From the sequence record OP778610: a stretch of DNA of 64,000 bases. One strand, 5' to 3'. Both the position numbers and the translations under genes were made by a program. This document shows, one piece after another, positions 4,483 to 47,643 of this stretch. The notes under the pieces were generated by a model. It did no database searches and was not told the origin of the DNA. It saw only the letters and a list, made by a program, of their open reading frames with translations. Each line of letters begins with the position of its first letter. Within the stretch, counting starts at the first letter, position 1. Source of the stretch: Escherichia phage W70.

Positions 4483-4670
4483 TAAGCCTCCTCAGTATCG
4501 TCTTTAAAGTAATCTAACATCCAACTCTCTACAGGTTTCGCATAGTAACCCGTTCGCCCTTTCTTTTGGAACTCCATAACAATTTCATTTGCAATACCTT
4601 TTGTGATTGCGATCCCGATCAGTGCACCACCAGGCCCCATTACTGCATGTGAACTAAGATCATTACTCAT
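4482..4670 (-). CDS. hypothetical protein
   Basis: 62-aa ORF, start overlaps upstream stop. Confidence 0.4.
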   Translation of the reverse strand: MSNDLSSHAVMGPGGALIGIAITKGIANEIVMEFQKKGRTGYYAKPVESWMLDYFKDDTEEA

Positions 4671-4962
4671 TTTTAACCCCCTTCATTTTATCTCTTAAAC
4701 TTTGAGCATCCCACGTATAACCTGAGGAGATACCTTTTTCACGTTCACTATCTTTGAACTTGCAAATTACAGATTTTGCTTCACCATCAACAACAACCGC
4801 ATAACTGTTGTAGTAATTGTGTTGCTTCTTGCAAAATTCGTGTAACTCCTTGACCTCTATTGGCATCAGAGAAGGTAGATTTTTGTATCGCTTTGTCTGA
4901 TCATCTTCACCCTCTCCGCAACCAACAAGAAGAAGTATACATAAAATGATTAACCTTTTCAA
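4663..4962 (-). CDS. putative lipoprotein
   Basis: N-terminus KRLIILCILLLVGC resembles a lipobox signal; TTG start in track. Confidence 0.5.
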   Translation of the reverse strand: MKRLIILCILLLVGCGEGEDDQTKRYKNLPSLMPIEVKELHEFCKKQHNYYNSYAVVVDGEAKSVICKFKDSEREKGISSGYTWDAQSLRDKMKGVKNE

Positions 4963-16281: not shown

Positions 16282-16998
16282 TTATTTGTTGTATTGATAA
16301 ATTGCTTCAGCCAAGCCCCGTGGGGTTAATGACCGGATCATCTTAGTTCTTGCTGACTTACCACCCAACTTATTCTGCTGATCTGACCAACCAGGTGCAA
16401 CAGGAACCGGAGAGGTTTTTGGAATTATAAACCCATTCCCTGTCCAAAGTCCAGTCTTTTTAGGATAAGCATCCCGTGGTTTAATGTACTGAGGAAAATA
16501 AGGGTTAACATCATTTACCGGAAGATAACCACCATATTCCCAAGGGTTGAAATATACCGTAGGCTTTCGCCATTGTCCAGCTAAAACACTAACGGGGTTC
16601 TCGATCATGTAAGGACAATCAAAAACAAATTCCGCAAGCCAAGCTGCAATCTTTGCAGTTCTTACCGCCTTGATCTGGAAGAAAGGATCTTTTGCTTTCT
16701 TTGATGCAAAGTGACGCGAACCACTGACAGCCATATCAGTACATGGAGGGTAGGCAAGGATCAGGTCCGGTGATGGCAATCCTAAGTTCTCTACATTCTC
16801 CATCCATTCAATATCGATAAAAGCGTTAACGTAAGTGATGTTGGGATGAATTTCCTTTACACCTTCATAATCCCCGTGATCAGCATCGTCATAGTTGAAG
16901 CAGTAGCATTTGTGCCCTGCTTTTGCCCAAGGAAGAACATCAATACCTGAACCAGAAAAGAGACTCCAGATAATCTTTTTATTCATCGTAGCATCCAA
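16282..16998 (-). CDS. minimal DNA (cytosine-5)-methyltransferase-like protein
   Basis: Motif I LFSGSG; motif IV PPCT-DMAVSG (PC catalytic dyad, Thr in place of Gln); motif VI ENP; only 238 aa. Confidence 0.5.
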   Translation of the reverse strand: MDATMNKKIIWSLFSGSGIDVLPWAKAGHKCYCFNYDDADHGDYEGVKEIHPNITYVNAFIDIEWMENVENLGLPSPDLILAYPPCTDMAVSGSRHFASKKAKDPFFQIKAVRTAKIAAWLAEFVFDCPYMIENPVSVLAGQWRKPTVYFNPWEYGGYLPVNDVNPYFPQYIKPRDAYPKKTGLWTGNGFIIPKTSPVPVAPGWSDQQNKLGGKSARTKMIRSLTPRGLAEAIYQYNK

Positions 16999-17291
16999 AT
17001 AGTGGTTAATTTACAAATACACCAGAAAATCCCGATCAGTGTAGCCAGAGTAATAACACAAGTCAATGCTATAGGTAAGAATATTGTCATAATCACTGCA
17101 AAGACTGAAATACCTACGCTTGCAATAAGATCCGGTACGAAATAGTGAAATGGATCTCTTGCCTTTTTAATGTTGTCCCATGTTATTACTACGGAGCTAA
17201 GGACGAGCCAGAATAAAAAGTACAAAATGCAAGGAAATAAAGTCATGTGTGACTTAACCATATCAAACCACATGTTGTAGAATTCAATCAT
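16983..17291 (-). CDS. small membrane protein
   Basis: Three hydrophobic stretches. Confidence 0.45.
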   Translation of the reverse strand: MIEFYNMWFDMVKSHMTLFPCILYFLFWLVLSSVVITWDNIKKARDPFHYFVPDLIASVGISVFAVIMTIFLPIALTCVITLATLIGIFWCICKLTTIWMLR

Positions 17292-17611
17292 TCAGTTTTC
17301 CTCGGTACAGATGCAATAACAGCCTTTTCGACGAGACATACAATAAATCTCCCAATCCCTGCCAAAAGGAGAGCAAAGACTGTAAAAGGCAACCCATAAA
17401 TAAGAACCAAAATCATCAATCCAAAACAAGCGGAAAACAGGACTTCTGTGCCTAGCCACATTTTGGAGTAATTGATATAATTATGTCGCAATTTTAAAAA
17501 CAGTCCAGCAATAGAGCCTACAGAAAATATACCAATCAACCAAGGTGCAGTTACAAATGAACGACTGAACCCTTCCCAAAAAACAAAAACATTAATGATT
17601 GCTTCGATCAT
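17288..17611 (-). CDS. small membrane protein
   Basis: Hydrophobic throughout. Confidence 0.45.
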   Translation of the reverse strand: MIEAIINVFVFWEGFSRSFVTAPWLIGIFSVGSIAGLFLKLRHNYINYSKMWLGTEVLFSACFGLMILVLIYGLPFTVFALLLAGIGRFIVCLVEKAVIASVPRKTE

Positions 17612-23875: not shown

Positions 23876-23957
23876 ATTTAATCTCCTTGTTTGTGTTCAG
23901 TTACTTTATCACTTTGAGAGAAAGATGCAACAAGATTATTGCATCTTTTTTAATTAT

Positions 23958-25316
23958 TTACTGATTGTTGAAAATGCTCGGGAACTTCTCGTGATAGAAG
24001 TCTACAACATCCTGATCAACGATGATATCTTTTACTCGCAGACGCTTCATCAGGCGAAGACCTTCTACGGATGTGGCACGAGATAGCATGACGTAGGCTT
24101 GCCCAGGTGTAAAAGTACCAAAACCAAGATCAATATTTACTTTACCCAAGGTAAGACCCTGCGCTTTATGACCCGTGATCGCATAGCCTAACTTAAATGG
24201 GTACTGGATATACTCACCGATAGATTTATCGACAAGAACAGTTTTTTCAACCATCTTCTTGATCGTCTTTTTGGTTCCGTCAGGCATATCCACCTCTTCC
24301 TCTTCAAGCATCATCTTTTTCTCAGGTACTTGAGCAACGTTGTTCCATGTTGCAGGGCCGATTGGAACCATCTTGCCATCGATATCTACAACAACAAATG
24401 TTTTTGCGATACGACGAACAATACCGACTGTACCGTTGACATAATCAGGCACTTTCTTCTTCTGATCATTGTCGTTAACAACAATCATTACTTTAAGACC
24501 TTCCTTGAGAAAGAGTTTTTCATTAACTGGACGTTCAACAAACTCACCAGTGATACGGGCATTGAATTCATGCTGTTCAGCATTAATCTTTGCGTACTCT
24601 TTGTTGTTGATCTCTTCTGCCAGCTTGTTTGTGGTAGTTAAAGTTACTGCCCCGTCAAGTGGACGACCAAAGCAACGCTGGTTAAAGAAGTTAACAGCAT
24701 CAGGGATGTTTTTCCCGATACGAATATTGTTCAGGTGTTCTGCAAACACTGGATCACTTTGGCGATGAACTTTAGGAAGATAAGCATAGGTCAGATTCAA
24801 AGATTCCCAAGTTTCACACCCAAAAGGAATTTCTTTCCCGTGCAGTTCACGGAACAAAGGAACCTCTTCTTTCTTAAGTACAGGCTTGATCTGGAAGCCG
24901 TCACCAAACATGATGATCTGGAGTCCACCAAAAGGCTTATCGGATTTACGATGGTGGCGAAGTTTCATATCGATTTCTTTCAGTTTGTCACTTCGAGTCA
25001 TACCGATCTCATCGAACACGATACCATCGAGTGCATCAGATGCCATAAGCATAGCTGCCTTTTTAGATTTTGCCTTATAATCCTCGGAAGTTGTGACACC
25101 AAAGGTTAAACCAAACGCTTTATGAGTCGTAACACCACGGATGTTTAATGATGCCACGCCTGTTGGACCAACAAACAGAAAACTATCAGCAAAGAAGTCA
25201 CGCAGTGCTGCGATCATCATACTTTTACCACTACCACCAGGTCCGGTGATAAAAACGTTTTCCCCATTCATGATTGCTTGCATTGCCGCTTCGTTACCGA
25301 TCACTGTCTTAGTCAT
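23958..25316 (-). CDS. Dda/RecD-like superfamily-1 DNA helicase
   Basis: Walker A GPGGSGKS, Walker B IVFDEIGM, GDGFQIKPV motif. Confidence 0.75.
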   Translation of the reverse strand: MTKTVIGNEAAMQAIMNGENVFITGPGGSGKSMMIAALRDFFADSFLFVGPTGVASLNIRGVTTHKAFGLTFGVTTSEDYKAKSKKAAMLMASDALDGIVFDEIGMTRSDKLKEIDMKLRHHRKSDKPFGGLQIIMFGDGFQIKPVLKKEEVPLFRELHGKEIPFGCETWESLNLTYAYLPKVHRQSDPVFAEHLNNIRIGKNIPDAVNFFNQRCFGRPLDGAVTLTTTNKLAEEINNKEYAKINAEQHEFNARITGEFVERPVNEKLFLKEGLKVMIVVNDNDQKKKVPDYVNGTVGIVRRIAKTFVVVDIDGKMVPIGPATWNNVAQVPEKKMMLEEEEVDMPDGTKKTIKKMVEKTVLVDKSIGEYIQYPFKLGYAITGHKAQGLTLGKVNIDLGFGTFTPGQAYVMLSRATSVEGLRLMKRLRVKDIIVDQDVVDFYHEKFPSIFNNQ

Positions 25317-25506
25317 TATTTAGTTCCTCATATTCGTATGGGTAGATTTGATACTCTTTGTTGTCTTTTAGTGCGACGGCTGTAACACTTTCAACGTAAA
25401 AATCATCATCATAGTGTATTTCCTCAATTACGAGAATATCACCTTTCTTTGGATGATCATCACGATCACTGAAATCATTTAATAGCTTTATTTTTACGTT
25501 TTTCAT
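25309..25506 (-). CDS. hypothetical protein
   Basis: 65-aa ORF. Confidence 0.4.
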   Translation of the reverse strand: MKNVKIKLLNDFSDRDDHPKKGDILVIEEIHYDDDFYVESVTAVALKDNKEYQIYPYEYEELNND

Positions 25507-25687
25507 ACAACATCTCCGCTGCTACAAGTGATAAGATCATTGCCATATACATCACAATAGAGGTCACACTGATTTGAATGAATAGTTCATCAGTAACATG
25601 ATTGAAGTAAACATTCTTTACATATCGAACCCCTATAAGCCAAAATGCCATCACCACAGCAAATGTTAGTATCATACGTTTTATCAT
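25475..25687 (-). CDS. small two-TM membrane protein (holin-like candidate)
   Basis: Two hydrophobic segments, charged C-terminus; immediately downstream of hydrolase gene. Confidence 0.35.
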   Translation of the reverse strand: MIKRMILTFAVVMAFWLIGVRYVKNVYFNHVTDELFIQISVTSIVMYMAMILSLVAAEMLYEKRKNKAIK

Positions 25688-26199
25688 TTCTTCTTCTCCT
25701 CTTTGTCTTTATAAAAGATGTGATTTTCTATGGTTACTGTTCTTTTTAGAAGTTTACGCCAAACGGGTTTAACCTTCTTCGTATGATAATACAGAGATCC
25801 ATATGTCGGGTCAAACCTTTTGTACAAAATCTCGTTATTTTTTAGCTTATGTACGAATTTTGATATACTAAGAGCACCCTCCCAAGAATCTTTATCTGTT
25901 ATATTATAGGAAGATTTGGTTAGTGTCCACGAGAACTGAGAGGCTTGATACACAACACCCTTCATAGTGGTTGGGAACTTATCATGCTTCATACGATTCA
26001 TAGTTACGAATGCAACAGCCATTTGACCATTGACCGTTTCTCCTCTCGCTTCCATATAAACATTGCAAGCTAAGGCATTAATAGAGTTATCCTTTTTAGT
26101 GCATTTGTGGATAACTTTCTGTGCTCTCTCTTTGGCATAAGTAACGCCTGGTGCCAGAGACAGAGTACAAATAAAACTATATAATACTAATTTCTTCAT
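25684..26199 (-). CDS. secreted cell-wall hydrolase (SleB/Hydrolase_2-like)
   Basis: Signal peptide MKKLVLYSFICTLSLAPGVTYA; NVYMEARGE...AVAFVTMNR motif. Confidence 0.55.
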   Translation of the reverse strand: MKKLVLYSFICTLSLAPGVTYAKERAQKVIHKCTKKDNSINALACNVYMEARGETVNGQMAVAFVTMNRMKHDKFPTTMKGVVYQASQFSWTLTKSSYNITDKDSWEGALSISKFVHKLKNNEILYKRFDPTYGSLYYHTKKVKPVWRKLLKRTVTIENHIFYKDKEEKKK

Positions 26200-26245
26200 T
26201 TTCCCTCCAATTGAGGACCCAGCTTATCACTGGGTCGCTCTCTTG

Positions 26246-26632
26246 TCAACTACCTTCTGTATGCTTTTTAATTTGGTCAGCGATCCCTTTCCATAGGCCG
26301 TTAAGGAAAGGGTTGCTTGTGATTACCTCGCCTAACCAGGGGCCGTACAGGCGATATACGTAGTCATCTGTGATCGCATAGATACTTCCATCCCGTACAG
26401 CCAGTCCACGCACAAGAGATGTTGTTACACGACGGCCTGCGAATCCAGTTTTTTGATATTCAACTTCTGTATTCTCAATATAACCGACCAAATTCACAAG
26501 GTTTTGTGTCCCATCAATTGTAAAACCACACTTATTTTCAAGATCTTCTGAAATAGTGCTGATCCCTTCTAGTGAGAAGTTGCCACCGAACTTTAGGCCA
26601 TACTTAGCTGCAAGTTTATCGTGCGCTGTCAT
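26246..26632 (-). CDS. hypothetical protein
   Basis: 128-aa ORF. Confidence 0.5.
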   Translation of the reverse strand: MTAHDKLAAKYGLKFGGNFSLEGISTISEDLENKCGFTIDGTQNLVNLVGYIENTEVEYQKTGFAGRRVTTSLVRGLAVRDGSIYAITDDYVYRLYGPWLGEVITSNPFLNGLWKGIADQIKKHTEGS

Positions 26633-31075: not shown

Positions 31076-31350
31076 TAAATTTCCTCCAAATCAGACTCTA
31101 CAATATAGATACCTGGTGAAACTCTATAAGCCCAAGTGTTAAAAGTACAAGAATACATAATTCCTTTTACTCTGTAAGTTTTATTTGCAAACTGGCTCAC
31201 AGGGTTAGTGACTTTCACCATTGTGTCACTTGCAAACTTTGGCATACCATGCTGTGAAATTGCTTCACGATCAATCTTATAAACATCTCTCCCAAAGAAC
31301 TTTTCCAGTGGGCAAAGATTATTCTCAAAATCAGTACCCATAGTCAACAT
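31075..31350 (-). CDS. hypothetical protein
   Basis: 91-aa ORF. Confidence 0.4.
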   Translation of the reverse strand: MLTMGTDFENNLCPLEKFFGRDVYKIDREAISQHGMPKFASDTMVKVTNPVSQFANKTYRVKGIMYSCTFNTWAYRVSPGIYIVESDLEEI

Positions 31351-31597
31351 TTCCTGTAATTACCGAAGTGCTTTTGGTTGTCTTGCCATTTGAAGTCTGA
31401 ACATGAGTATCTGCATGAGGGCAATATACTACATTTAGATTCACATGACTCGGACCAGATTCAAGACGATAAATCTTACAACCTGCCTTTTCCATTTCTT
31501 GTGGCAAAACATAACCGAAAGTCTTATCGACAGCCGACTTTTGATCACAACCAGAAATGAAACACAGCATAAAAATCGCAGCAATAATCTTTTTCAT
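31331..31597 (-). CDS. putative lipoprotein
   Basis: N-terminus MKKIIAAIFMLCFISGC (lipobox-like). Confidence 0.55.
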   Translation of the reverse strand: MKKIIAAIFMLCFISGCDQKSAVDKTFGYVLPQEMEKAGCKIYRLESGPSHVNLNVVYCPHADTHVQTSNGKTTKSTSVITGNVDYGY

Positions 31598-31944: not shown

Positions 31945-32404
31945 TATTTATTTGGATACCGAAACGATTTTCGTTAGTGGAAAAGAAACCATTTTCCATG
32001 CGGCGAATCTCTTCTTTCATCACTTCCTGCATCGTTAATTTAAGGATTTCTTTGTTTAATTTTGGCTTAACTTCATGAAGCTTGTCAAGAAGTTTTTCCA
32101 TTTCTTCTTTTACTTTTTCTTCCTCATTTTCTATTTCTAATTGGTCCATCGCATCTTTGCAAACACAGCAATGACCTATTACTCTTAAAATGTGGTTTTG
32201 TATAGGTAATGCTTTTCTACCACAATAACCACAAAGAATAGAACCACCAGAGTTTCGGGCATCCACTGTCAATGTAGGTTTGGCCCCTTTTGCCTGAGAA
32301 TGCCAAGTCTTTTTGCCTTGGTAATCATACATAAAGAATTCATAGGATCTCTCATCAACGTGATCTTCGAGCATATGTAAAGTTCGTGTATTGAAATGTT
32401 TCAT
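31916..32404 (-). CDS. hypothetical zinc-ribbon protein
   Basis: CGYCG...HCCVC cysteine pairs. Confidence 0.5.
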   Translation of the reverse strand: MKHFNTRTLHMLEDHVDERSYEFFMYDYQGKKTWHSQAKGAKPTLTVDARNSGGSILCGYCGRKALPIQNHILRVIGHCCVCKDAMDQLEIENEEEKVKEEMEKLLDKLHEVKPKLNKEILKLTMQEVMKEEIRRMENGFFSTNENRFGIQINNGEDYVEED

Positions 32405-32526
32405 CTTTAAACCTCTCGTCGTTTGTATGAGCTAACTATACGAGAACTTGAGAGGAAGATCAATACTTGATTTGCATTTTATTTTCATTATACTGTGCAC
32501 ATCTAAAACGAGAAGGAGTGTAATAA
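32405..32526. promoter_or_regulatory. divergent promoter region
   Basis: AT-rich 120-bp gap between divergent gene arrays; TTGATT...TATACT-like elements; GGAG RBS before 32527. Confidence 0.4.
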
Positions 32527-33090
32527 ATGAGTCAAGATAAAGAGTTAGCCATTGCAATATCGACAGCAGCTTCTGCACACGTTAACCAGGTAGATAAAGG
32601 AGGGAATATCTACATCCTTCATCCTTTACAGGTGATGCAGACACTGCAACAAAAAGGAAGAGAGGATTTAATGGCAGCAGGTGTTTTGCACGACGTGATT
32701 GAAGACACTAATCTCACTATGGTAGATCTCTTTAGAATGGGTATTTCAGAAAGAACTCTGGAGATTGTCGATGCAGTAACAAAGAAACGTAAGCAATCTT
32801 CATCTGATTACCTAGAGGGGATTTTAGAGAGTGAGGGTGCTTGTCATGTTAAGCTTGCGGATCTTAAACACAACTTAGATATTCTGCGAACTTGTAGCAC
32901 CACAGAAAAAGACTTGCAACGGGTCAGGAAGTATGTAACAATGCACTTGTTGATTACGGAGATGGTTGATTGGTATGAAAGTATCGGAAGGTATCTCGAT
33001 TATTGTGATTCTTTTGCCTATTCTAGCTATCTCGACGAACGTAAAGAATTTGTTCAGAAACTTATTAAAAAATGGAAGGAGTTTAAATGA
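32527..33090 (+). CDS. small alarmone hydrolase (SpoT/Mesh1-type HD-domain (p)ppGpp hydrolase)
   Basis: IYILHPLQV and AAGVLHDVIEDT motifs; 187 aa single-domain. Confidence 0.7.
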   Translation: MSQDKELAIAISTAASAHVNQVDKGGNIYILHPLQVMQTLQQKGREDLMAAGVLHDVIEDTNLTMVDLFRMGISERTLEIVDAVTKKRKQSSSDYLEGILESEGACHVKLADLKHNLDILRTCSTTEKDLQRVRKYVTMHLLITEMVDWYESIGRYLDYCDSFAYSSYLDERKEFVQKLIKKWKEFK

Positions 33091-33690: not shown

Positions 33691-34920
33691 ATGCAAGCAA
33701 CTTATCAACGTATGGACCAAACCATGTTCAAAAAACGTATCAGTATCCGTGATATGGAACCACTGATCCGTCTGGGCGCTTCCATCGGTAAGACCGTGTT
33801 CTTTTTTGGTGGTGCAGGTCTTGGTAAGTCTGAAAAAGTAAAACAGATCGCGGACTCTATGTTCCCACATCGTGTAGGCAATAACCTGTGTGATGTTCGT
33901 CTGTCTGATAAAGAGCCACAAGATATTGCAGGCATTCCGATTCCGATCTCTTATCCAGATCCAAAGACTGGTGAAGAAGTTACCCGTACTGTATATGCTG
34001 TTCCAAACTTCTGGCCTACCGATCCTGATTGGGAAGGTATCGTGTTCCTGGATGAACTGCCGAACGCACCATTGGGTACTCAGCACTCTGCATATCAGGT
34101 TATTCTTGATCACGTTGCAGGTGAGCATAAGTTCCCGAAAGGTACTGTGTTTGTAGGTGCGGGTAACCGTGATACTGATGGAGCAGGGACAACATCTATG
34201 CCTGGTCCACTGGTTAACCGTATGATCATCGCCGAGGTTGATTATAATCTGGATGTGTGGATCGAAGATTATGCGATTCCGTTCCGTCTGCATCCGAACA
34301 TTATTGGTTTCTTGAAGCAGTTTCCAGAGCATTTCTATACTGGTGACGTAGAAAACCGAAGCACTCCGGTTTATTCATCTCCTCGTCAATGGAAAACAGC
34401 ATCTGACATTCTGTATAAGTACGATGCTGGCGAGATTAATGAATTTATCGCAGAGGTTGCCCTGGCAGGTACAGTTGGTGAAGGCTTGGAAGTACAGATC
34501 CTTGCTTACCATTTACGTGCTAAAGAACTTCCTCCGATTGAAGATATCTTTAGTGGTGCAGTTAAAGAACATAAACTTGATCGCAGTAAGAACGACCTTG
34601 TTTACGTACTGGCACAAACTGGTCTGCGTCGTATGGAAGATGAAGTTATGGATAACGATATGACTGATGATAAGTTCCTTGAACGTGCAGGTAACTTCCT
34701 TACGTTCATGTACAATAACTATTATGCAAACAACAAGGATACGATGATTGCTTTGATCTTGGGCGTGTTCCGTGGTCCAAACGATAAGCCATCTATCCTG
34801 ACTGTTAACCCGAAACGTCAGAAAATGATTCCGCTCATGCGTAAAAGTTGCCCGACTGTTTCTGCCGCAGTTATGGAATACATGACTCGCTATGGTCAAC
34901 TGATTAAAGAATTCGAATAA
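33691..34920 (+). CDS. MoxR-like AAA+ ATPase
   Basis: Walker A GGAGLGKS, Walker B VFLDELPNA, GAGNRDTDG. Confidence 0.65.
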   Translation: MQATYQRMDQTMFKKRISIRDMEPLIRLGASIGKTVFFFGGAGLGKSEKVKQIADSMFPHRVGNNLCDVRLSDKEPQDIAGIPIPISYPDPKTGEEVTRTVYAVPNFWPTDPDWEGIVFLDELPNAPLGTQHSAYQVILDHVAGEHKFPKGTVFVGAGNRDTDGAGTTSMPGPLVNRMIIAEVDYNLDVWIEDYAIPFRLHPNIIGFLKQFPEHFYTGDVENRSTPVYSSPRQWKTASDILYKYDAGEINEFIAEVALAGTVGEGLEVQILAYHLRAKELPPIEDIFSGAVKEHKLDRSKNDLVYVLAQTGLRRMEDEVMDNDMTDDKFLERAGNFLTFMYNNYYANNKDTMIALILGVFRGPNDKPSILTVNPKRQKMIPLMRKSCPTVSAAVMEYMTRYGQLIKEFE

Positions 34921-41933: not shown

Positions 41934-42043
41934 GTTGTGTTGCCCTTTCTTTTGTTGTGCGCCCTGGTTGTCGCGGTAAAAAGACTATAAATGATCTTCC
42001 TTTATATAGCAAGGAAAAAGAAATTAAAAAAGATTAAAAATAA

Positions 42044-42072
42044 TGTTGACGTAGTGAATCTGGTAGCGTAGT
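42044..42072 (+). promoter_or_regulatory. sigma70-like promoter
   Basis: TTGACG, 17-bp spacer, TAGTAT. Confidence 0.5.
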
Positions 42073-42131
42073 ATTCATCTCATCGAACGGCGACATGCCA
42101 ACAAGTAAACAAATAAAAGGGCAACAACAAA

Positions 42132-42317
42132 ATGAATAAAAGAATTACAAACGTAAATCCTGGCGAACGTTTCCAACATGAGGGGCATTTGCACACTGTA
42201 GTAAGCAACAAAGAGCATACTGTAAGAGTAAATAGAAATATCTTGCAACTTCGCGATCGTTTTGGTATCGTACAGACTTACACTTTCGAAGCAAATAAAA
42301 CAGTTAAAACTTTCTGA
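42132..42317 (+). CDS. hypothetical protein
   Basis: 61-aa ORF. Confidence 0.45.
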   Translation: MNKRITNVNPGERFQHEGHLHTVVSNKEHTVRVNRNILQLRDRFGIVQTYTFEANKTVKTF

Positions 42318-42328
42318 GGATTTTTAAA

Positions 42329-42664
42329 ATGGCACTAGTCACTAAGTATTTCATTGAAGGCCAGCAAGCGGCGCAACAAGGTTACAGCCGTGTTACTCGT
42401 TACAAGAAAGAAGAAAACAAGATTGAATTTTTCAAGGGTTACGATAGTGTAAACCGTGATGCAATGGTCCTACGCTTCGAATCCGATCCAGTGGGCAAGC
42501 CTGTTACCTCTTACCAGGCATCACCGCAGATTGTTTATGTTGGTACTGTTAAAGAATGTAACGACAAGTTAATCACTTTGAAGCAGGCCGATCGTGCGGG
42601 TTACTTTGTTGTTTACACTGCTGACGGTAAGCCTTACCAGTACGAAAGCAAATATTTTAAATAA
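42329..42664 (+). CDS. hypothetical protein
   Basis: 111-aa ORF. Confidence 0.5.
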   Translation: MALVTKYFIEGQQAAQQGYSRVTRYKKEENKIEFFKGYDSVNRDAMVLRFESDPVGKPVTSYQASPQIVYVGTVKECNDKLITLKQADRAGYFVVYTADGKPYQYESKYFK

Positions 42665-42672
42665 AAAGTATT

Positions 42673-42727
42673 GACAGAAAGAAAGAAGTAAATTAAATTA
42701 TACCACGTAACGCCGCAATCGTGCGGC
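42673..42727 (+). promoter_or_regulatory. promoter plus 5' hairpin cassette
   Basis: TTGACA, 17-bp spacer, TAAATT; hairpin gccgca-atcg-tgcggc. Confidence 0.5.
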
Positions 42728-42754
42728 AATAAAAACTGATAGGAATTGAACAAA

Positions 42755-42967
42755 ATGGCTAAAATCATCATTAAAAAATCCCGTGTATCTTCTGTTGCTC
42801 GCGTCGAAATGGTAAACACTATGCCAGGTTACCGGACTCGCGAGGAAGCCCGAAGCGTTGCAAAACAGATTAAAGCCCGTGGCTTAACTGTAAGTGCACC
42901 GACCAAAACACAAGAAGGATGGAAGGTATCTATTAAATCCGGTACACTGTCGATCAATAAACACTAA
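42755..42967 (+). CDS. hypothetical basic protein
   Basis: ATG at 42755 preferred over TTG at 42746. Confidence 0.45.
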   Translation: MAKIIIKKSRVSSVARVEMVNTMPGYRTREEARSVAKQIKARGLTVSAPTKTQEGWKVSIKSGTLSINKH

Positions 42968-43030
42968 TAGCCAAAACATTAACGGGGCAACTTTGCCCCT
43001 CACTAAATAACATTATCCAGGAGTATTAAC

Positions 43031-43189
43031 ATGACTAGCCAAAACACTAACATTGAAAAAATCAACATTACTAAAGAGCGTAAAGCATGGAATGAAACAT
43101 TAAATCTGAAAGGTAAGAAGCTGAATAAAACTAAACGCGATCGCAGTACAAAGCGGGCCTTTTGTGAATTTACAGCGGATCAAGAATGA
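43031..43189 (+). CDS. small ORF (52 aa)
   Basis: AGGAG RBS 7 nt upstream; overlaps next start; below ORF-track cutoff. Confidence 0.35.
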   Translation: MTSQNTNIEKINITKERKAWNETLNLKGKKLNKTKRDRSTKRAFCEFTADQE

Positions 43190-43485
43190 TGATTAAAGTT
43201 ATTGCACTTACTGCCTTATTGTGTATACCATTTTTGGCGCACGGTACTAAGTTTTACGGTGCTAACTTGATAGATTGTAAAGCTCATATGCTGGACCATG
43301 AAACAGGCAACAAATTTGTTAAGCCTTTCCAGATCAATCCGGCGGTGTTTACTGACGGTGTTTTATATCAGGAAGGTAAAGCCAGTACGCTGATAATCCA
43401 TTACGATCCAGCGACAAAGAAAGGTAGTTTATCAATCCAGGTTGAAGGCGCGGAAGAGTTTTCAGGTAAAATAATCTGCAATTAA
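43186..43485 (+). CDS. secreted or periplasmic protein
   Basis: N-terminal signal-like MIKVIALTALLCIPFLAHG. Confidence 0.5.
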   Translation: MMIKVIALTALLCIPFLAHGTKFYGANLIDCKAHMLDHETGNKFVKPFQINPAVFTDGVLYQEGKASTLIIHYDPATKKGSLSIQVEGAEEFSGKIICN

Positions 43486-43545
43486 TATGTTAAGGCCCGC
43501 CATTGTGCGGGCCTTTCTTTTATGAAAATAATTTTGAAAATGTTG

Positions 43546-43614
43546 TTGACAGCACCGATTAAAAGCGTATGATGTATTACATCAGGACGGGGAACCAAAC
43601 AAGTAACTCCCCGT
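43546..43614 (+). promoter_or_regulatory. promoter plus hairpin with no downstream ORF
   Basis: TTGACA then -10-like, hairpin acgggga...tccccgt; no start codon before next promoter. Confidence 0.35.
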
Positions 43615-43663
43615 TAAGTAGTCCAGGAGTAAGACATACGAAAACCTCCCCTGATAAAATAGT

Positions 43664-43722
43664 TTGACAATAGTTTTTAGTACTGTATAATACATTACAT
43701 CAAGGGGAGAATAGTTCTCCCC
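43664..43722 (+). promoter_or_regulatory. promoter plus 5' hairpin cassette
   Basis: TTGACA, 16 bp, TATAAT, hairpin GGGGAGAA-tag-TTCTCCCC. Confidence 0.6.
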
Positions 43723-43742
43723 ACATCAAAGGAATCAAAACA

Positions 43743-43970
43743 ATGGCTATCGTAATCACTCGCGTATCTGGTACAGTTGGCAATGCGGCAGTAGTAGCGG
43801 TTATCACTAATAAGAAAGGTGCGGAACTACATTTTGCAATGTATAACTGGTCAGTTGATGAGTTTGGTCAGTACGCTAGTGTAGAATACATTGAAACCTA
43901 TCAAGTGCCGTCGATTAGTTTAACTGATTTGGGCGTTGAGCGTATCCTTTGCCTGGATGAATTAAATTAA
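43743..43970 (+). CDS. hypothetical protein
   Basis: 75-aa ORF after cassette. Confidence 0.5.
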   Translation: MAIVITRVSGTVGNAAVVAVITNKKGAELHFAMYNWSVDEFGQYASVEYIETYQVPSISLTDLGVERILCLDELN

Positions 43971-43977
43971 AAAAGTA

Positions 43978-44038
43978 CTTGCAAAGTAAAACGAATAACG
44001 TATAATACATTACATCAAGGGGAGAAATGATTCTCCCC
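43978..44038 (+). promoter_or_regulatory. promoter plus 5' hairpin cassette
   Basis: TTGCAA, 17 bp, TATAAT, hairpin GGGGAGAA-atga-TTCTCCCC. Confidence 0.55.
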
Positions 44039-44055
44039 ACTAAGAGGAAACTAAG

Positions 44056-44196
44056 ATGAAAACTTGCCAGTGTGGTAAAAAGTCTATTGCTGGTCTGCGT
44101 CGCGGTGTTGCTTTATGCCAGTATCATTACAATAGTCAAGTATGGGGTAAAACGTGGGCTGACCAGGTTGAAGCAGCAAAGAAAGCAAAAAAGTAA
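44056..44196 (+). CDS. small Cys-containing ORF (46 aa)
   Basis: Follows cassette; CQCG...CQYH; below track cutoff. Confidence 0.35.
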   Translation: MKTCQCGKKSIAGLRRGVALCQYHYNSQVWGKTWADQVEAAKKAKK

Positions 44197-44253
44197 TTGA
44201 CAGCAGGAAGAAAAAGAGTAAACTGTATTACGTAGGGCGGCAATAGCGCCGCC
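44197..44253 (+). promoter_or_regulatory. promoter plus 5' hairpin cassette
   Basis: TTGACA, TAAACT, hairpin GGGCGGC-aata-GCGCCGCC. Confidence 0.5.
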
Positions 44254-44274
44254 ACATCAAAGAGAGAAATCAAA

Positions 44275-44493
44275 ATGGCTAATATCCGCACACTGTTAAA
44301 AAATGCAAAAGAAGTTTTATTTTCTGACGATGAATATTTTAATCGCAATATCAAAGGCGTTCGGAACATTAAGGATATAAAGGAATTATTTGGAATCAAA
44401 GGTAACGTATATCGTAAAGGATTGCACGGTAATAATTTTGAATATAAGTTGGCTGATAGTGATTATAATTTTACACTGACCATCATTAGTTGA
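44275..44493 (+). CDS. hypothetical protein
   Basis: 72-aa ORF. Confidence 0.45.
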   Translation: MANIRTLLKNAKEVLFSDDEYFNRNIKGVRNIKDIKELFGIKGNVYRKGLHGNNFEYKLADSDYNFTLTIIS

Positions 44494-44512
44494 AAGTTTT
44501 AATCTAGCGCTA

Positions 44513-44541
44513 TTGACTTAAGCCGATAGTGCTGGCATAAT
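44513..44541 (+). promoter_or_regulatory. sigma70-like promoter (no hairpin)
   Basis: TTGACT, 17 bp, CATAAT. Confidence 0.5.
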
Positions 44542-44573
44542 AACTTTTATCAAGAACATCAAAGGAAAGTAAA

Positions 44574-44786
44574 ATGGCTATCATTACTAAAATCAAAGTA
44601 AACAAAACACTGGTTAAGCTGGAAGAAGTGAAAGCAGGTTATAAAGTATCTTGGTGTGGCATGTATCGGATGTTCACAGATATAGACGATGCAATCAATT
44701 ACTACACTAACACGATTAAAAACTTTGTTCGTGCTGATGTGATTATTGCAGTGGAAGCACATAAAGCATCGAAAGAAAGTAAGTAA
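44574..44786 (+). CDS. hypothetical protein
   Basis: 70-aa ORF. Confidence 0.45.
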   Translation: MAIITKIKVNKTLVKLEEVKAGYKVSWCGMYRMFTDIDDAINYYTNTIKNFVRADVIIAVEAHKASKESK

Positions 44787-44805
44787 AATTATTACCACAG
44801 TACTA

Positions 44806-44834
44806 TTGACAACTACTGATAGTACTGACATAAT
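44806..44834 (+). promoter_or_regulatory. sigma70-like promoter (no hairpin)
   Basis: TTGACA, 17 bp, CATAAT; near-duplicate of 44513 promoter. Confidence 0.5.
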
Positions 44835-44879
44835 AACTTTTATTAAGTACTACAAATCAAACAAAGAGAGAATACAATC

Positions 44880-45119
44880 ATGGCTAACAACAAAACTTTT
44901 AACGGTCACAAAAACAAAACTCATTGGAATGTTTCCTTGTGGATTAATAACGATGCATCACTGTATCGACTGGCTAATGATTTCATCGTCGCTAACACTA
45001 ATCGTAACGATGCGGCCCGTCATATGATGTTATTTTTAGAACAAACCGGACAACATAAAACACCGGACGGATTCAAGTATAGTACTACTGCAATCCGTGC
45101 CGCGATGGTTGGGATGTAA
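44880..45119 (+). CDS. hypothetical protein
   Basis: 79-aa ORF. Confidence 0.45.
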   Translation: MANNKTFNGHKNKTHWNVSLWINNDASLYRLANDFIVANTNRNDAARHMMLFLEQTGQHKTPDGFKYSTTAIRAAMVGM

Positions 45120-45176
45120 TATTCAGTACTGAATCAATGGCGGGGAATAGTTCCCGCCTTTACTGAGGATTATCTA

Positions 45177-45461
45177 ATGAGCAAAGTAATTAATAGTAAA
45201 GTACTGAGTAAAACATTAACACTCACTGAGTGCACCAATGGCTTTTGGCTATACGATTCTACCCGTGGCATGAATATAGCTATGCAAGCGAAATCAGAGG
45301 AGGCTGCATTTGTTGAAGCCCTGGGATACTATCAGAGACGTCTACAGGAAGTAGAAAACAATTACACCAGCCTTAAAGCGAAAGTAGACCATTTCATCGG
45401 GCAAGTGGTAGAAGATGATGAGGATGGTCACTATTGCGAACGCTGCGGATCTTACAGCTAA
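45177..45461 (+). CDS. hypothetical protein
   Basis: Preceded by hairpin GGCGGGGAA-tag-TTCCCGCC at 45139-45158. Confidence 0.45.
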   Translation: MSKVINSKVLSKTLTLTECTNGFWLYDSTRGMNIAMQAKSEEAAFVEALGYYQRRLQEVENNYTSLKAKVDHFIGQVVEDDEDGHYCERCGSYS

Positions 45462-45469
45462 AAAAGTAG

Positions 45470-45527
45470 TTGACACAAAGAAACAAAACAAGTAAATTAA
45501 TCACATCAGGCGGGGAATGGACCCGCT
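45470..45527 (+). promoter_or_regulatory. promoter plus 5' hairpin cassette
   Basis: AAAAGTAGTTGACA, 17 bp, TAAATT, hairpin GGCGGGGAATGGACCCGC. Confidence 0.6.
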
Positions 45528-45548
45528 AAAAGAGAAGAGAGAAATCAA

Positions 45549-45881
45549 ATGAGCTTTTTATCTATCGTACAGACTAACTTTGAAAATGATTTCATTGCTC
45601 AAGCTATCAACATCGACAAAGGTATCCCAAATATCAATTTTGGTTACAATAGCGGTGGTTATGAAAGATACCAGTATTTTGTAACTGACGATGGAAGTGT
45701 TTTAGGTATCAATACAGTGATGGCTAATATCCAAAACATTAATTTCAATGATCCCGATGAGCGCTCATTTTATATCGTCGGTATCCAGGTAAACTATGAA
45801 GATGATACGTTAACCGATGATTACACAGGTGAAGTATTAGAAAGTGTTTACGGTGATGAATCAGAAGAAGAAGAAGAATAA
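45549..45881 (+). CDS. hypothetical acidic protein
   Basis: C-terminus SEEEEE. Confidence 0.45.
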   Translation: MSFLSIVQTNFENDFIAQAINIDKGIPNINFGYNSGGYERYQYFVTDDGSVLGINTVMANIQNINFNDPDERSFYIVGIQVNYEDDTLTDDYTGEVLESVYGDESEEEEE

Positions 45882-45896
45882 GATTAGAAAAAGTAG

Positions 45897-45955
45897 TTGA
45901 CGGAAAGAGTATAAAGAAGTAAGATAATTAACGAATAGGGGGAAACATCTTCCCC
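45897..45955 (+). promoter_or_regulatory. promoter plus 5' hairpin cassette
   Basis: AAAAGTAGTTGACG, 17 bp, TAAGAT, hairpin GGGGGAA-acatc-TTCCCCC. Confidence 0.55.
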
Positions 45956-45980
45956 CATAAACAAAAAGAGAGATTGAAAA

Positions 45981-46163
45981 ATGACAGAACTGATTGCAAC
46001 TACAAAGATCGAAGGCGTTAACGATGTTACTTTGTCCTATGATCCTTCTACTCTGGTTTATGTTGTGAAATATGGCAGAATGATCGCAGAACTTGATTGC
46101 ATTGATGAGGCTTTCGAAAAATATTTCGAACTTATCAATATTGCTTATGATGACTACCGTTAA
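45981..46163 (+). CDS. hypothetical protein
   Basis: 60-aa ORF. Confidence 0.4.
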   Translation: MTELIATTKIEGVNDVTLSYDPSTLVYVVKYGRMIAELDCIDEAFEKYFELINIAYDDYR

Positions 46164-46193
46164 TATACAACGTAAAAATAGAAAGGTGATAAA

Positions 46194-46403
46194 ATGATCA
46201 ATGAAAAAACAATCAATGATGTTCGCGAGGAAGTTTTAGCCGTTGCTGTAGAATCGGGTGCACGTCAGGCATTTTGGAAAGCTACTGATCTTTACCCCGA
46301 GCAAGCCGAAAATATTCTTAATCAGGTCAGCGTTAAACTTGAACAAATAGGCAAACTGAAAACAAGTGAGCGCCTCGACCAAATCATTAAAGAAAGTTTT
46401 TGA
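46194..46403 (+). CDS. hypothetical protein
   Basis: 69-aa ORF. Confidence 0.4.
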   Translation: MINEKTINDVREEVLAVAVESGARQAFWKATDLYPEQAENILNQVSVKLEQIGKLKTSERLDQIIKESF

Positions 46404-46441
46404 TTGACTTTTAACATTGCCCCTATTAGTATTCAGGGGCA
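46404..46441 (+). promoter_or_regulatory. sigma70-like promoter with overlapping hairpin
   Basis: TTGACT, 17 bp, TAGTAT; inverted repeat GCCCCT...AGGGGC. Confidence 0.45.
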
Positions 46442-46467
46442 AGATTAAAAGAAACAAGGACACAAAG

Positions 46468-46779
46468 ATGAACGATATTGTTAGCATTATAGGTTTACTG
46501 GGCGTAGGCTACGTCGCCACATCAATTACAATGAGTTACTTCAATAAAAGGCGTGATAAAATGTTTTGTTACTTTGAATACCGTTACCGTGGTAAGGTTG
46601 GATCATCCCGTGACTATGGTCCGATGTTAGAGATTGATGCGGTTGGCGCTATGCAGTATCGCCAGTCACTAGGGGCTGAAATAATTTTTGAAGTGTACCG
46701 CAGTACAGAAGAAGAGATCCACGACATTATTGACGAGCGTCAATATTACCACGAACAACAAACTAAACGCAGGGCTTAA
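46468..46779 (+). CDS. membrane-anchored protein
   Basis: ATG at 46468 with hydrophobic N-terminus IVSIIGLLGVGYVATSI. Confidence 0.45.
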   Translation: MNDIVSIIGLLGVGYVATSITMSYFNKRRDKMFCYFEYRYRGKVGSSRDYGPMLEIDAVGAMQYRQSLGAEIIFEVYRSTEEEIHDIIDERQYYHEQQTKRRA

Positions 46780-46966
46780 CATATGACTAATACAAACCGA
46801 CAAAAAATCATCAAAACTAAAAAACTTGATTTCAATACTTATCAAGAATGCAAGAAGAAAGTAAAAGATAAGCGAGAGAACAAGCGGCACGAATGGATAA
46901 GCAATACAATCGATCTTTAATATCAACCTAAGCCCACTATGTGGGCTTTTCTTATGGAGAACAGAC

Positions 46967-47194: not shown

Positions 47195-47279
47195 TTTAAA
47201 AAACTTCTTGCATCCATTATTGAGAAGATGTACATTAGTTTCATCAAGACGAGATGATGACAATCAAAAGGTGATTACT

Positions 47280-47573: not shown

Positions 47574-47586
47574 TTTGAAAAAGTAG

Positions 47587-47643
47587 TTGACTCAAAGAAG
47601 CAAAACAAGTAAATTATTCACATCAGGCGGGGAATGGCCCCGC
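47587..47643 (+). promoter_or_regulatory. promoter plus 5' hairpin cassette
   Basis: AAAAGTAGTTGACT, 17 bp, TAAATT, hairpin GGCGGGGAATGGCCCCGC; near-duplicate of 45470 cassette. Confidence 0.6.

Follow-up and report, generated by a model that had tools for sequence, protein, structure and literature searches.

A predicted exported SleB-type hydrolase and an overlapping two-helix membrane protein in Escherichia phage W70 as a possible accessory muralytic module

The closest described counterpart of the gene pair considered here belongs to Pectobacterium phage CB7, for which Buttimer et al. published the pair CB7_83/CB7_82 in 2020, regarding the small protein as a class II holin candidate and reporting that expression of CB7_83 is toxic (PMC7344957). 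In Aeromonas phage ASG01, the Cwh protein described by Li et al. in 2024, which combines a signal peptide with a Hydrolase_2 domain, needs no holin to lyse E. coli from within, and its Cys and active-site mutants are inactive (PMC10975977). In Bacillus, YpeB keeps SleB inactive at a membrane, and E203, R222, Y278, and H301 are groove residues of B. subtilis SleB (PMC13556211). The SleB glutamate has been described as catalytic, and the SleB-fold T6SS effector T6EC3, acting in the periplasm, makes E. coli cells round up and burst in a glutamate-dependent manner (PMC11148199). For Vequintavirinae and T5-like phages, genome papers describe a second endolysin alongside the SleB-like hydrolase.

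Our analysis concerns a window of 64,000 nucleotides, the whole stretch of DNA analyzed, from Escherichia phage W70 (OP778610), a Vequintavirinae phage of the rV5 group that infects E. coli and is close to A73 and A7_1. A preliminary description had proposed a candidate lysis pair in the window, namely a secreted SleB-like hydrolase and a small protein with two transmembrane (TM) segments, and its coordinates proved exact against the list of open reading frames (ORFs). Both genes are on the minus strand. The hydrolase gene (25684..26199; Pfam PF07486, SleB fold, dN/dS) encodes 171 aa and a predicted exported protein, and the second gene (25475..25687; ORF, hydropathy, charge, dN/dS) encodes a 70-aa two-TM protein predicted to lie in the inner membrane in the N-in/C-in orientation, with the basic C-tail YEKRKNKAIK. 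As the preliminary description had stated, the hydrolase TGA overlaps the ATG of the 70-aa ORF, and direct reading gives the sequence ATGA (25684..25687, minus strand), an arrangement implying probable translational coupling. GAGGAG within the last hydrolase codons provides the Shine-Dalgarno sequence of the 70-aa ORF, and the same −4 overlap at the hydrolase stop occurs in many relatives. The Shine-Dalgarno sequence of the hydrolase itself, GGAGGG (26203..26208, minus strand), was also read directly, and its GGAG is invariant in the alignment of relatives.

The pair is followed on the same strand by a 65-aa ORF (25309..25506; phrog_14198, E = 3e-10; synteny), which overlaps the 70-aa membrane gene by 32 nt within the same unit and has orthologs of 62–64 aa at the same position in relatives. 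Its end is overlapped by 8 nt by the start of a PIF1/Dda-like helicase (23958..25316, minus strand; Pfam PIF1, E = 6e-22; phrog_30356, E = 1.8e-236), the final gene of this overlapping four-gene unit. A stem-loop directly past the helicase stop (23918..23951, minus strand; terminator scan, fold −13.4 kcal/mol, z = −4.7) is likely the end of the unit. The order of hydrolase, small membrane ORF, 62–65-aa ORF, and PIF1 helicase is repeated in divergent relatives.

This layout closely resembles that of CB7 (CB7_83/CB7_82) and of Cronobacter phage CR3 (CR3_087 and a 'membrane protein'), which belong to Certrevirus in the same subfamily and carry the genes at the same locus, 5' of the PIF1 helicase. 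In these phages, as here, a SleB-like hydrolase with a signal peptide has its stop overlapped by a two-TM N-in/C-in ORF (62–65 aa in CB7 and CR3), and a separate T5-Lys-like M15 peptidase and terminase-adjacent spanins, which the phage of the window is expected to share, accompany it, with no rIIA/B. The finding is not new, since the same pair and interpretation were published for this sister genus in 2020. However, the hydrolase of the window is only about 50–57% identical to those of CB7 and CR3, and its 70-aa partner has a long basic C-tail that the Certrevirus partners do not possess. The positional equivalents in relatives belong to phrog_10205 ('membrane protein'), to which homology of the 70-aa protein was undetected (hhalign probability 8%, no PHROG hit); position and topology are the only features common to it and the Certrevirus partners.

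The hydrolase matches Pfam Hydrolase_2 (PF07486) across the entire profile (1–100 of 100) with E = 2e-23 and 83.3 bits, against a cutoff of 27, and a PHROG search assigned it to PHROG 938. No N-terminal PG_binding_1 domain was detected by Pfam, and the protein consists of the catalytic domain alone. The motif N46-V-Y-M-E50-A-R-G-E54 ... N68-R69, which had led the preliminary description to a secreted SleB-like enzyme, is present. Its catalytic part (26038..26064, minus strand) was located by alignment to the YGESRGE motif found in SleB of B. cereus and B. anthracis, and N68-R69 (25993..25998, minus strand) is assigned to the substrate groove. E50, N68, R69, and H160 are invariant in an alignment of 18 diverse homologs, and E50 and R69 are so in a further homolog alignment as well. 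The spacing from E50 to R69 equals that from E203 to R222 in B. subtilis SleB, and Y137/Y138 may be compared with its groove residue Y278. The AlphaFold2 model (pLDDT 87.5) retrieved only the SleB catalytic domains 4F55 and 4FET in a Foldseek search of the PDB (E about 1e-6, TM (target) 0.73). These two are matched in sequence and not just in fold, the Glu of YGESRGE aligning with E50, which appears to be the counterpart of the SleB catalytic glutamate. Compared with UPEC06 and LTH01, dN/dS is about 0.03 for the hydrolase and about 0.07 for the 70-aa gene (dS up to 0.76), and both genes are under purifying selection. The assignment of the earlier reading is thus borne out by the Pfam match, the SleB fold, and the invariant E50, N68, and R69, and the hydrolase/membrane pair is confirmed as real and conserved.

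With Bacillus SleB, a spore cortex lytic transglycosylase whose partner YpeB is membrane-anchored, the phage enzyme shares the catalytic domain and the groove residues, and in both systems a gene for a membrane protein comes directly after that for the enzyme. In contrast to SleB/YpeB, the phage enzyme is without an N-terminal peptidoglycan-binding domain, and its partner is a 70-aa helical hairpin rather than a PepSY protein. Bacillus SleB prefers the muramic-delta-lactam cortex, which E. coli does not have, a point that weighs against the accessory reading preferred below. The cortex cannot be the substrate of the phage enzyme, unlike that of the Bacillus protein.

The hydrolase begins with MKK-LVLYSFICTLSL-APGVTYA, followed by KE, in which inspection and hydropathy distinguish n-, h-, and c-regions and a small −3/−1 site. 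The predicted signal peptide comprises residues 1–22 (MKKLVLYSFICTLSLAPGVTYA; 26134..26199, minus strand; inspection, hydropathy, relatives), with cleavage before KE. The cleavage-site region is conserved in relatives as ...ALA followed by KE, and residues 1–15 have a pLDDT below 50 in the model. The signal peptide is kept in all lineages examined, comprising the window clade, Certrevirus-like contigs, rV5-like, T5-like, and phi92-like phages, and aquatic contigs, with the exception of Pakpunavirus, whose homolog has an uncharged N-terminal TM (signal-anchor-like) segment. The classic signal peptide of the preliminary description agrees with these observations. The enzyme would accordingly get to the periplasm via Sec, with no need for a holin, and the earlier suggestion of Sec rather than holin export finds support in the signal features. 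The homolog ASG01 Cwh lyses E. coli alone (PMC10975977). The phage enzyme shares with Cwh a signal peptide, here a predicted one, a single Hydrolase_2 domain, and conserved Glu and Cys residues, which Cwh needs for its activity. Compared by description, Cwh differs in being the sole lysis gene reported in its phage, in having no described membrane partner, and in the location of its cysteines; in our hydrolase, the Cys33/Cys45 pair is invariant inside the window clade. Two other readings of the N-terminus were rejected. For a SAR endolysin, inspection shows a Leu-rich h-region (LVLYSFICTLSL) followed by P-G and a T-Y-A/A-L-A site; for a lipoprotein, Cys11 lies within SFIC, with no lipobox, and is not conserved in relatives.

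Hydropathy reveals two hydrophobic segments in the 70-aa protein, corresponding to TM helix 1 (residues 5–20; 25628..25675, minus strand), which ends near W16, invariant in the partner-family alignment, and TM helix 2 (residues 36–60; 25508..25582, minus strand). The N-terminus carries a charge of +2, the loop is net 0, and the C-tail has +5/−1, a distribution that predicts the N-in/C-in orientation by the positive-inside rule. On hydropathy and the positive-inside rule alone, its size, two TM domains, predicted topology, and charged C-tail resemble those of a class II holin. Its start may be dual (MIKRM, with M1 and M5), a feature repeated as MIKM in one relative (L094). No family match was found for the protein in Pfam or PHROGs, including PepSY, and neither it nor its positional equivalents matched a holin family in Pfam, in PHROGs, or in a profile search for entries named holin. 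In the two-helix partner family, the best-conserved part is the periplasmic loop, with the motif W..G.K...FFPE, and not the helices.

Directly 5' of the hydrolase is a sigma-70-type promoter, TTGACA-17 nt-TAAGCT (26221..26249, minus strand; pattern match, conservation), in which a TG precedes the −10 hexamer at a distance of one base. The relaxed pattern gave 42 matches in the window versus 13.4 expected. Ten relatives retain TTGAC and the −10, and in these the spacing stays at 16–17 nt despite a variable loop length. A stricter consensus scan omitted this promoter, whose −10 TAAGCT matches at 3 of 6 positions. The weakness of this hexamer counts against the accessory reading that we prefer below, as does a generic promoter scan of the window, which gave no enrichment over shuffles. 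The exact CB7 early-promoter consensus GTTGAC-N16-20-TAWAAT had no match in the window. The −10 hexamer is situated in the loop of a 7-bp hairpin, GACCCAG/CTGGGTC (26216..26236, minus strand; covariation, RNA fold), which is fully paired in all 10 sequences; one pair changes from GC to AU by compensation, and the sense strand also shows G-U wobbles. The hairpin has an RNA fold of −21.4 kcal/mol (z = −4.3) and is followed by a T-rich tail in Certrevirus-like relatives; it probably terminates or attenuates transcripts arriving from upstream.

The pair would therefore head its own unit, co-transcribed with the PIF1 helicase, and the conserved sigma-70-type promoter, together with reading-through into the helicase gene, points to early or middle rather than late expression. 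The location of the pair in an early array, as proposed in the preliminary description, fits this picture. When considered as a lysis cassette, the unit lies in the replication array with a sigma-70-type promoter, which argues against placement as a late class II holin gene. The literature search found no usable Vequintavirinae transcriptomics.

Other lysis genes were found away from the pair. The close relative UPEC06 encodes a separate 127-aa endolysin (Peptidase_M15_4/phrog_465), without a TM segment or signal and predicted to be cytoplasmic, and its i- and o-spanin genes adjoin the terminase, away from the hydrolase pair. The M15 endolysin of the relatives is located about 12 kb outside the window; given the nucleotide similarity of about 90% to UPEC06 and the synteny, the source phage is expected to carry it as well. 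A screen of ten further small membrane proteins in the genome gave no match to a holin family. The annotation of PP430345 (LTH01) is nearly all 'hypothetical' and contains no lysis-gene information.

Homologs of the hydrolase occur in 1286 phage records. In 43 of 61 non-redundant loci, a small TM ORF starts within −30 to +80 nt of the hydrolase stop, as compared with 13% of control ORFs. Two unrelated types of partner follow exported hydrolases: the two-helix type and, in aquatic T4-like contigs, a one-helix type whose periplasmic domain carries the motif DRKLMAANIE..GIDPL.VRCSY..DD..C. The partner gene reads as frameshifted in CR9, a viable phage; two related contigs (L017, L022) do not have it, another (L007) has a replacement, and rV5-, T5-, and phi92-like phages retain the hydrolase without such a partner. 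The stop of the hydrolase gene in rV5-like phages overlaps rIIA, whose T4 counterpart has an early, membrane-associated function. As a search of the window together with the remainder of UPEC06 found no rIIA, the hydrolase-rIIA link of the rV5 type is not applicable here.

We propose, with confidence that is about evenly balanced, that the pair forms a muralytic module with an export route of its own, accessory to the principal lysis cassette and distinct from it. The 171-aa hydrolase would carry a cleavable Sec signal peptide when made and be freed into the periplasm, where a Cys33-Cys45 disulfide probably stabilizes it. There it may cut the glycan strands of peptidoglycan at a SleB-type (lytic-transglycosylase-like) site formed by E50, R69, and H160; use of E. 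coli peptidoglycan as a substrate is suggested by the homolog experiments. The 70-aa inner-membrane protein would be translated by coupling from the hydrolase mRNA, so that both are made together. With its own sigma-70-type promoter and continuation into the PIF1 helicase, the enzyme would be expressed by host RNA polymerase along with replication genes, well before lysis. Most likely, the enzyme would act on the sacculus from its periplasmic face while infection proceeds, weakening or remodeling it, and the later action of the cytoplasmic M15 endolysin, holin, and spanins may then bring about lysis more quickly or more reliably. The partner most likely tunes the enzyme: it could depolarize the membrane in the manner of a holin or pinholin and so unleash the enzyme, or it could face the periplasm and tether or inhibit it. 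Since a hydrolase freely active in the periplasm would be dangerous early on, the accessory model must assume low activity or restraint. Moreover, with no other holin recognizable in the genome, the 70-aa protein could be the true holin and the pair more central than accessory.

Phage 21 has the pinholin/SAR-endolysin pair S21/R21, and Lys44 of Oenococcus phage fOg44 is a Sec-exported endolysin paired with a holin. In these systems, as predicted here, the muralytic enzyme crosses the membrane by host Sec, and the small two-TM protein could likewise be a depolarizing trigger. The pair might then be a genuine lysis timer and effector, in which a restrained periplasmic endolysin is unleashed when a class II holin or pinholin collapses the membrane potential, a reading that we judge to be unlikely. 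It accords with a protein that is small, has two TM segments, a predicted N-in/C-in topology, and a strongly basic C-tail, and adjoins a muralytic gene, as well as with the possible dual start and the lack of another recognizable holin in the genome. It is also the view of the CB7 authors, and the ASG01 homolog is sufficient for lysis. However, at least ten further small membrane proteins are equally without an assigned family, the holin searches gave no match, and the partner family is conserved most in the periplasmic loop. Unlike in S21/R21, the signal looks cleavable rather than of the signal-anchor-release kind, and there is no sequence relationship to S21. The gene order is opposite to that of typical cassettes, and together with the promoter class and co-transcription with the helicase it does not correspond to a late cassette of the S21/R21 or Lys44 type; a second, cytoplasmic endolysin, seen in UPEC06, would require a large-hole holin. 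The partner also appears frameshifted, lost, or replaced in some relatives, and other lineages have the hydrolase alone. For the proposed lysis pair, the holin-like size, topology, and basic tail and the toxic or lytic homologs thus remain in favor, whereas its status as the main pair is not upheld, given the separate M15 endolysin and spanins of UPEC06, the promoter class and the link to the helicase, the missing holin family, and the absence or alteration of the partner in some relatives. The caveat in the preliminary description that a non-lysis role is possible stands, in view of the separate endolysin, the promoter class, and the partner loss.

Such a role would be early and periplasmic, with the wall being remodeled during takeover (cell enlargement, division block, dismantling of envelope machines, or superinfection exclusion) and the partner serving as a tether or immunity-like inhibitor; we consider this rather doubtful. 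The locus position and promoter class agree with it, as do the overlap with rIIA in rV5-like phages, the location of the hydrolase gene of T5-like phages in the early region, and the conservation of the partner families chiefly in their periplasmic parts. Restraint of SleB by YpeB at the membrane (PMC13556211) provides a precedent, as does T6EC3 with its immunity protein T6IC3 (PMC11148199). T6EC3 has the SleB fold of the phage enzyme, is toxic in the periplasm of E. coli through its glutamate, and is encoded alongside a cognate neutralizing protein, the part that the 70-aa protein would play in this reading; delivery route and genetic context differ, and T6IC3 is a soluble periplasmic protein. 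Conversely, a 14-residue loop offers a small surface for enzyme inhibition, many lineages have no partner and an enzyme that is not obviously different, and the homolog experiments gave outright lysis rather than subtle remodeling. It is very improbable that the 70-aa ORF is a chance hydrophobic frame and not a functional gene. Its shortness, the absence of a family match, and tblastn matches in five close phages only would fit a chance frame, but it shows dN/dS of about 0.07 despite the appreciable dS, an ATGA overlap with a GAGGAG Shine-Dalgarno sequence, and equivalents in position and topology in relatives whose hydrolases share only 50–57% identity. Least credible of all is a role of the hydrolase in the virion, as an entry lysin opening the wall for DNA injection. 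A second muralytic enzyme used at entry is common among phages, but a cleavable Sec signal would export the protein from the cytoplasm, where virions are assembled, and the gene is in the replication array rather than a structural module. In the CB7 study, in which 26 virion proteins were identified by mass spectrometry, the gp25-like baseplate protein CB7_28, and not CB7_83, is named as the putative virion-associated lysin (PMC7344957).

A wider proposal, which we put forward tentatively and regard as rather doubtful, is that the small membrane proteins 3' of exported SleB-type hydrolases are not holins. They would instead be convergent periplasm-facing regulators (tether, inhibitor, or releasin-like), represented by the two-helix type here and in Certrevirus and by the one-helix disulfide-domain type in aquatic T4-like phages. 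If this is true, such regulators would let phages use a wall-cutting enzyme early without premature lysis, in a phage equivalent of YpeB-SleB. Besides a conventional endolysin, many large virulent phages with Gram-negative hosts have a Sec-exported SleB-type hydrolase, and the locus described here is a clean and compact example in a genetically tractable E. coli phage. Deciding among lysis priming, early action, and partner gating would clarify how lysis is controlled in these phages, several of which are therapy candidates, and would also identify a holin-independent lytic protein.

The hydrolase (25684..26199, minus strand, 171 aa) and the small two-transmembrane (two-TM) protein (25475..25687, minus strand, 70 aa) are encoded by adjacent genes whose stop and start share the tetranucleotide ATGA at 25684-25687 (minus strand; hydrolase TGA, small-ORF ATG), which bears out the overlapping pair of the preliminary description. 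A purine-rich GAGGAG lies in the final codons of the hydrolase, 8 nt ahead of the small-ORF ATG, a motif and spacing typical of translational coupling. Downstream, a 65-aa ORF (25309..25506, minus strand) shares 32 nt with the 3' part of the small gene, and a gene for a PIF1/Dda-type helicase (23958..25316, minus strand) shares 8 nt with the 65-aa ORF; with all of these overlaps, the four genes form a compact chain. At the DNA level the region matches Escherichia phage A73 with 94.6% identity and A7_1, A5-4, UPEC06 and vB_EcoM-LTH01 with 89-94%; all are Vequintavirinae of unclassified genus with genomes of ~141-145 kb. A7_1 and the window encode identical hydrolases (100%).

Assignment of the hydrolase to the SleB-type enzymes, proposed earlier from its motif, is well supported. 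The protein matches the full Pfam Hydrolase_2 profile (PF07486; E=2e-23, 83.3 bits, cutoff 27) and PHROG 938. Its only PDB sequence matches are the SleB catalytic domains 4F55 and 4FET, in which YGESRGE aligns with its YMEARGE. The AlphaFold2 model (pLDDT 87.5; residues 31-165 mostly >90) retrieved the same two structures alone with Foldseek (E ~1e-6, TM 0.73, target). Residues E50, N68, R69, S90, W147, H160 and Y163 are invariant in 18 diverse homologs, and E50, R69 and H160 remain so in a wider set of 27. These three probably correspond to E203, R222 and H301 among the groove residues of Bacillus subtilis SleB (PMC13556211); the E-to-R spacing is 19 residues in both proteins. No peptidoglycan-binding domain was found at the N-terminus in the Pfam profile search.

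Export by the Sec pathway, also part of the preliminary description, is likewise strengthened by a predicted signal peptide that is kept across lineages. By inspection, residues 1-22 comprise the three Sec signal-peptide regions, MKK, LVLYSFICTLSL and APGVTYA, followed by KE, and the predicted cleavage site is cleaner in relatives (...A-L-A before the cut, K-E after it). The hydrolase starts with a hydrophobic export signal in all lineages examined, namely the window clade, Certrevirus-like contigs, rV5-like FFH2, T5-like 'bastian', phi92-like PD06, aquatic viral contigs and Pakpunavirus phiMK, where the signal is of a signal-anchor-like type. Cys33 and Cys45 are invariant in the window clade and more distant homologs have another conserved cysteine pair; both patterns would fit a periplasmic disulfide. 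The sole cysteine of the signal peptide lies outside any lipobox and is not conserved, and therefore a lipoprotein is unlikely.

The small protein has hydrophobic segments at residues 5-20 and 36-60 (hydropathy). Its charge distribution (N-terminus +2, loop net 0, C-tail +5/-1) predicts an N-in/C-in topology. Compared with UPEC06 and LTH01, the small ORF has a dN/dS of ~0.07 (dS 0.6-0.8) and the hydrolase ~0.03; by this measure the 70-aa ORF is a real gene. Its product begins with MIKRM (25675-25687, minus strand), with a second Met four codons in and two basic residues between, which resembles holin/antiholin dual-start motifs (locus L094 has MIKM); the second Met has no evident Shine-Dalgarno of its own, and the dual start may be due to chance.

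No Pfam or PHROG family was found for the small protein, and tblastn retrieved it from five close phages only. Relatives with 50-57% identical hydrolases have a 61-77-aa two-TM ORF in the same position, usually with a 4-nt overlap (L006, L014, L015, L016, L024, L096, L018, L019, L023); in Salmonella phage SSBI34 it is present as an unannotated ORF. These equivalents, like the CR3 'membrane protein' and CB7_82, belong to phrog_10205 ('membrane protein'). They align collinearly with the small protein; TM1 ends with an invariant Trp, and the loop carries a motif. Homology between the window-clade and Certrevirus-clade partners was not established by profile-profile comparison (probability 8%), and we therefore claim only positional and topological equivalence. 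The Certrevirus-type alignment has several invariant positions between the two predicted helices, a region that we read as a putative periplasmic loop.

Homologs of the hydrolase occur in 1286 phage records. A small TM ORF (≤150 aa, at least one TM segment, start between -30 and +80 nt relative to the hydrolase stop) follows the hydrolase in 43 of 61 non-redundant loci, against 61 of 458 control ORFs (50-150 aa, same loci), a comparison that is not a formal test, as the 43 cases are phylogenetically clustered. The partners are of two unrelated types, the two-helix protein and a single-TM protein of 81-95 aa in aquatic viral contigs, whose gene overlaps the Hydrolase_2 stop (L037, L043, L049, L050, L054, L058, L062, L069, L073, L075, e.g. 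L075:2911-3162, L077, L078, L082, L087, L089, L093). The periplasmic segment of the aquatic protein is highly conserved and contains two cysteines (DRKLMAANIE.AI.KGIDPL.VRCSYA..DD..C; in fuller form DRKLMAANIENAIAKGIDPLxVRCSYAKxDDIxC). The protein had no Pfam or PHROG match, and its family has at least 286 metagenome clusters, all unnamed. A gp59-like neighbour suggests that these contigs may derive from T4-like phages.

The partner is also lost or replaced. Cronobacter phage CR9, a viable isolate, was listed as the exception without a partner (Buttimer et al. 2020, PMC7344957) because its partner gene is split into two frames (L097:3931-4266 and 4005-4130), either by a frameshift or through a sequencing error. 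L017 and L022 have no partner gene, L007 has a 139-aa single-TM protein in its place, rIIA overlaps the hydrolase stop in rV5-like phages, and no membrane gene occupies this position in T5-, phi92- or Pakpuna-like phages. Together these loci are evidence that the partner may not be essential.

The 46-nt spacer ahead of the hydrolase gene contains a predicted promoter, TTGACA-17 nt-TAAGCT (26249..26221, minus strand), with TG one base before a weak -10 hexamer, which sits in the loop of a perfect 7-bp hairpin (26216..26236, minus strand). This block is kept in ten relatives whose proteins have diverged to ~50% identity. All retain TTGAC and a -10 of TAAACT, TATACT or TAAGCT, spaced by 16-17 nt even where the hairpin loop is 2 nt longer. 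Pairing of the stem holds in 100% of cells; one pair shows a compensatory GC-to-AU change, and the sense strand has G-U wobbles (folding energy -21.4 kcal/mol, z=-4.3). In Certrevirus-like relatives, a T-rich tract follows the hairpin. We propose that the hairpin would terminate or attenuate transcripts arriving from upstream, while the overlapping promoter would start the unit without the 5' arm. A GC-rich hairpin also precedes the SleB-like gene in FFH2 (L010:1950-1998), where its form is clearly that of an intrinsic terminator (CCCCGC-TTCG-GCGGGG-ATTTT), and in PD06 (L012:1870-1960), where TTGCAA-17-TACAAT follows; a transcript boundary directly upstream of the SleB-like gene thus recurs.

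With the relaxed pattern TTGAC-N17-20-TAnnnT, the window has 42 matches (13.4 expected), clustered in small-ORF arrays; a generic promoter scan gave no enrichment. A putative early promoter with a similar distribution has been described in Pectobacterium phage CB7 (PMC7344957). A further stem-loop follows the helicase stop, and host sigma-70 polymerase may transcribe all four genes, from hydrolase to helicase, as one unit in early or mid-infection. Elsewhere, a single type of sigma-70-like promoter recurs in the plus-strand small-ORF array at 42000-49800, probably an immediate-early region. The motif consists of TTGACA, an A/G-rich spacer (AAAGAA, for instance) and GTAAACT or GTAAATT, and copies begin, among other sites, at 42671, 44197, 45470, 47587 and 48047. 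The long minus-strand array (~2216-32404) and a plus-strand array diverge at 32404-32527; the first plus-strand gene (32527-33090) is a putative GTP pyrophosphokinase by UPEC06 annotation only.

Is the pair, then, the lysis cassette of the phage? A cytoplasmic endolysin requires a conventional holin, and no holin is annotated. That the 70-aa protein is this holin is favored only by the neighboring hydrolase. Scanning the window and the rest of UPEC06 gave ten or more further small membrane proteins, two of them side by side in the tail-fibre region, without a match to any holin family; the 70-aa protein is therefore one holin candidate among many. The adjacent pair in UPEC06 (L005:33580-33912, 110 aa, one TM plus coiled coil; 33909-34367, 152 aa, four TM) sits amid tail-fibre genes of the late module, outside the window, belongs to PHROGs of unknown function, and provides alternative holin/antiholin candidates for the group.

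No M15 endolysin gene was found in the window. UPEC06 encodes a 127-aa Peptidase_M15_4/phrog_465 endolysin without a hydrophobic segment, flanked by the phoH and glutaredoxin genes and placed ~12 kb past the right end of the window, and an i-spanin/o-spanin pair directly upstream of the terminase. The 'lysis pair' label is supported only in part: enzyme and export support it, whereas the separate endolysin and spanins and the apparently dispensable partner count against it. Our best reading, which we consider about evenly poised, is that the pair would be an accessory muralytic module that provides for its own export and is expressed along with the replication genes; the membrane partner would tune the exported hydrolase.

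Several other window genes encode predicted membrane proteins or lipoproteins. A 190-aa protein (3910-4482, minus strand) starts with two TM helices, after which comes a short GPQGLPGPMGPRG stretch resembling collagen, and has weak PHROG matches to 'immunity to superinfection' (phrog_1039) and tail-fibre families. Two predicted small lipoproteins of the early/replication array (4663-4962 and 31331-31597, minus strand; their signal peptides end in LLVGC and FISGC) may serve, like T5 Llp, in receptor blocking or exclusion. Adjacent overlapping genes at 16983-17291 and 17288-17611 (minus strand) encode ~100-aa multi-TM proteins of similar layout that may be paralogs; UPEC06 has a similar tandem pair (L004:17971-18617).

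For a sister genus, both the pair and the idea of a holin have been published before. CB7 has the same hydrolase/membrane ORF arrangement, a separate T5-Lys-like M15 peptidase, terminase-adjoining spanins and no rIIA/B (Buttimer et al. 2020, PMC7344957). 'Two endolysins' have been noted for Vequintavirinae and T5-like phages in other genome papers, one beside a holin or in the structural module and the SleB-like one in the replication/early region. Cwh of Aeromonas phage ASG01, a 23-aa signal peptide plus a Hydrolase_2 domain, lyses E. coli upon induction without other phage genes, and lysis is weakened or lost when conserved Cys and other residues are mutated (Li et al. 2024, PMC10975977). 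One T6SS effector with a SleB fold shows glutamate-dependent toxicity in the periplasm of E. coli and has an immunity protein (PMC11148199). Added here are the conserved promoter/hairpin, a seemingly dispensable or replaceable partner, a second partner family and a conserved, predicted periplasm-facing partner region, observations that may help in planning decisive experiments.
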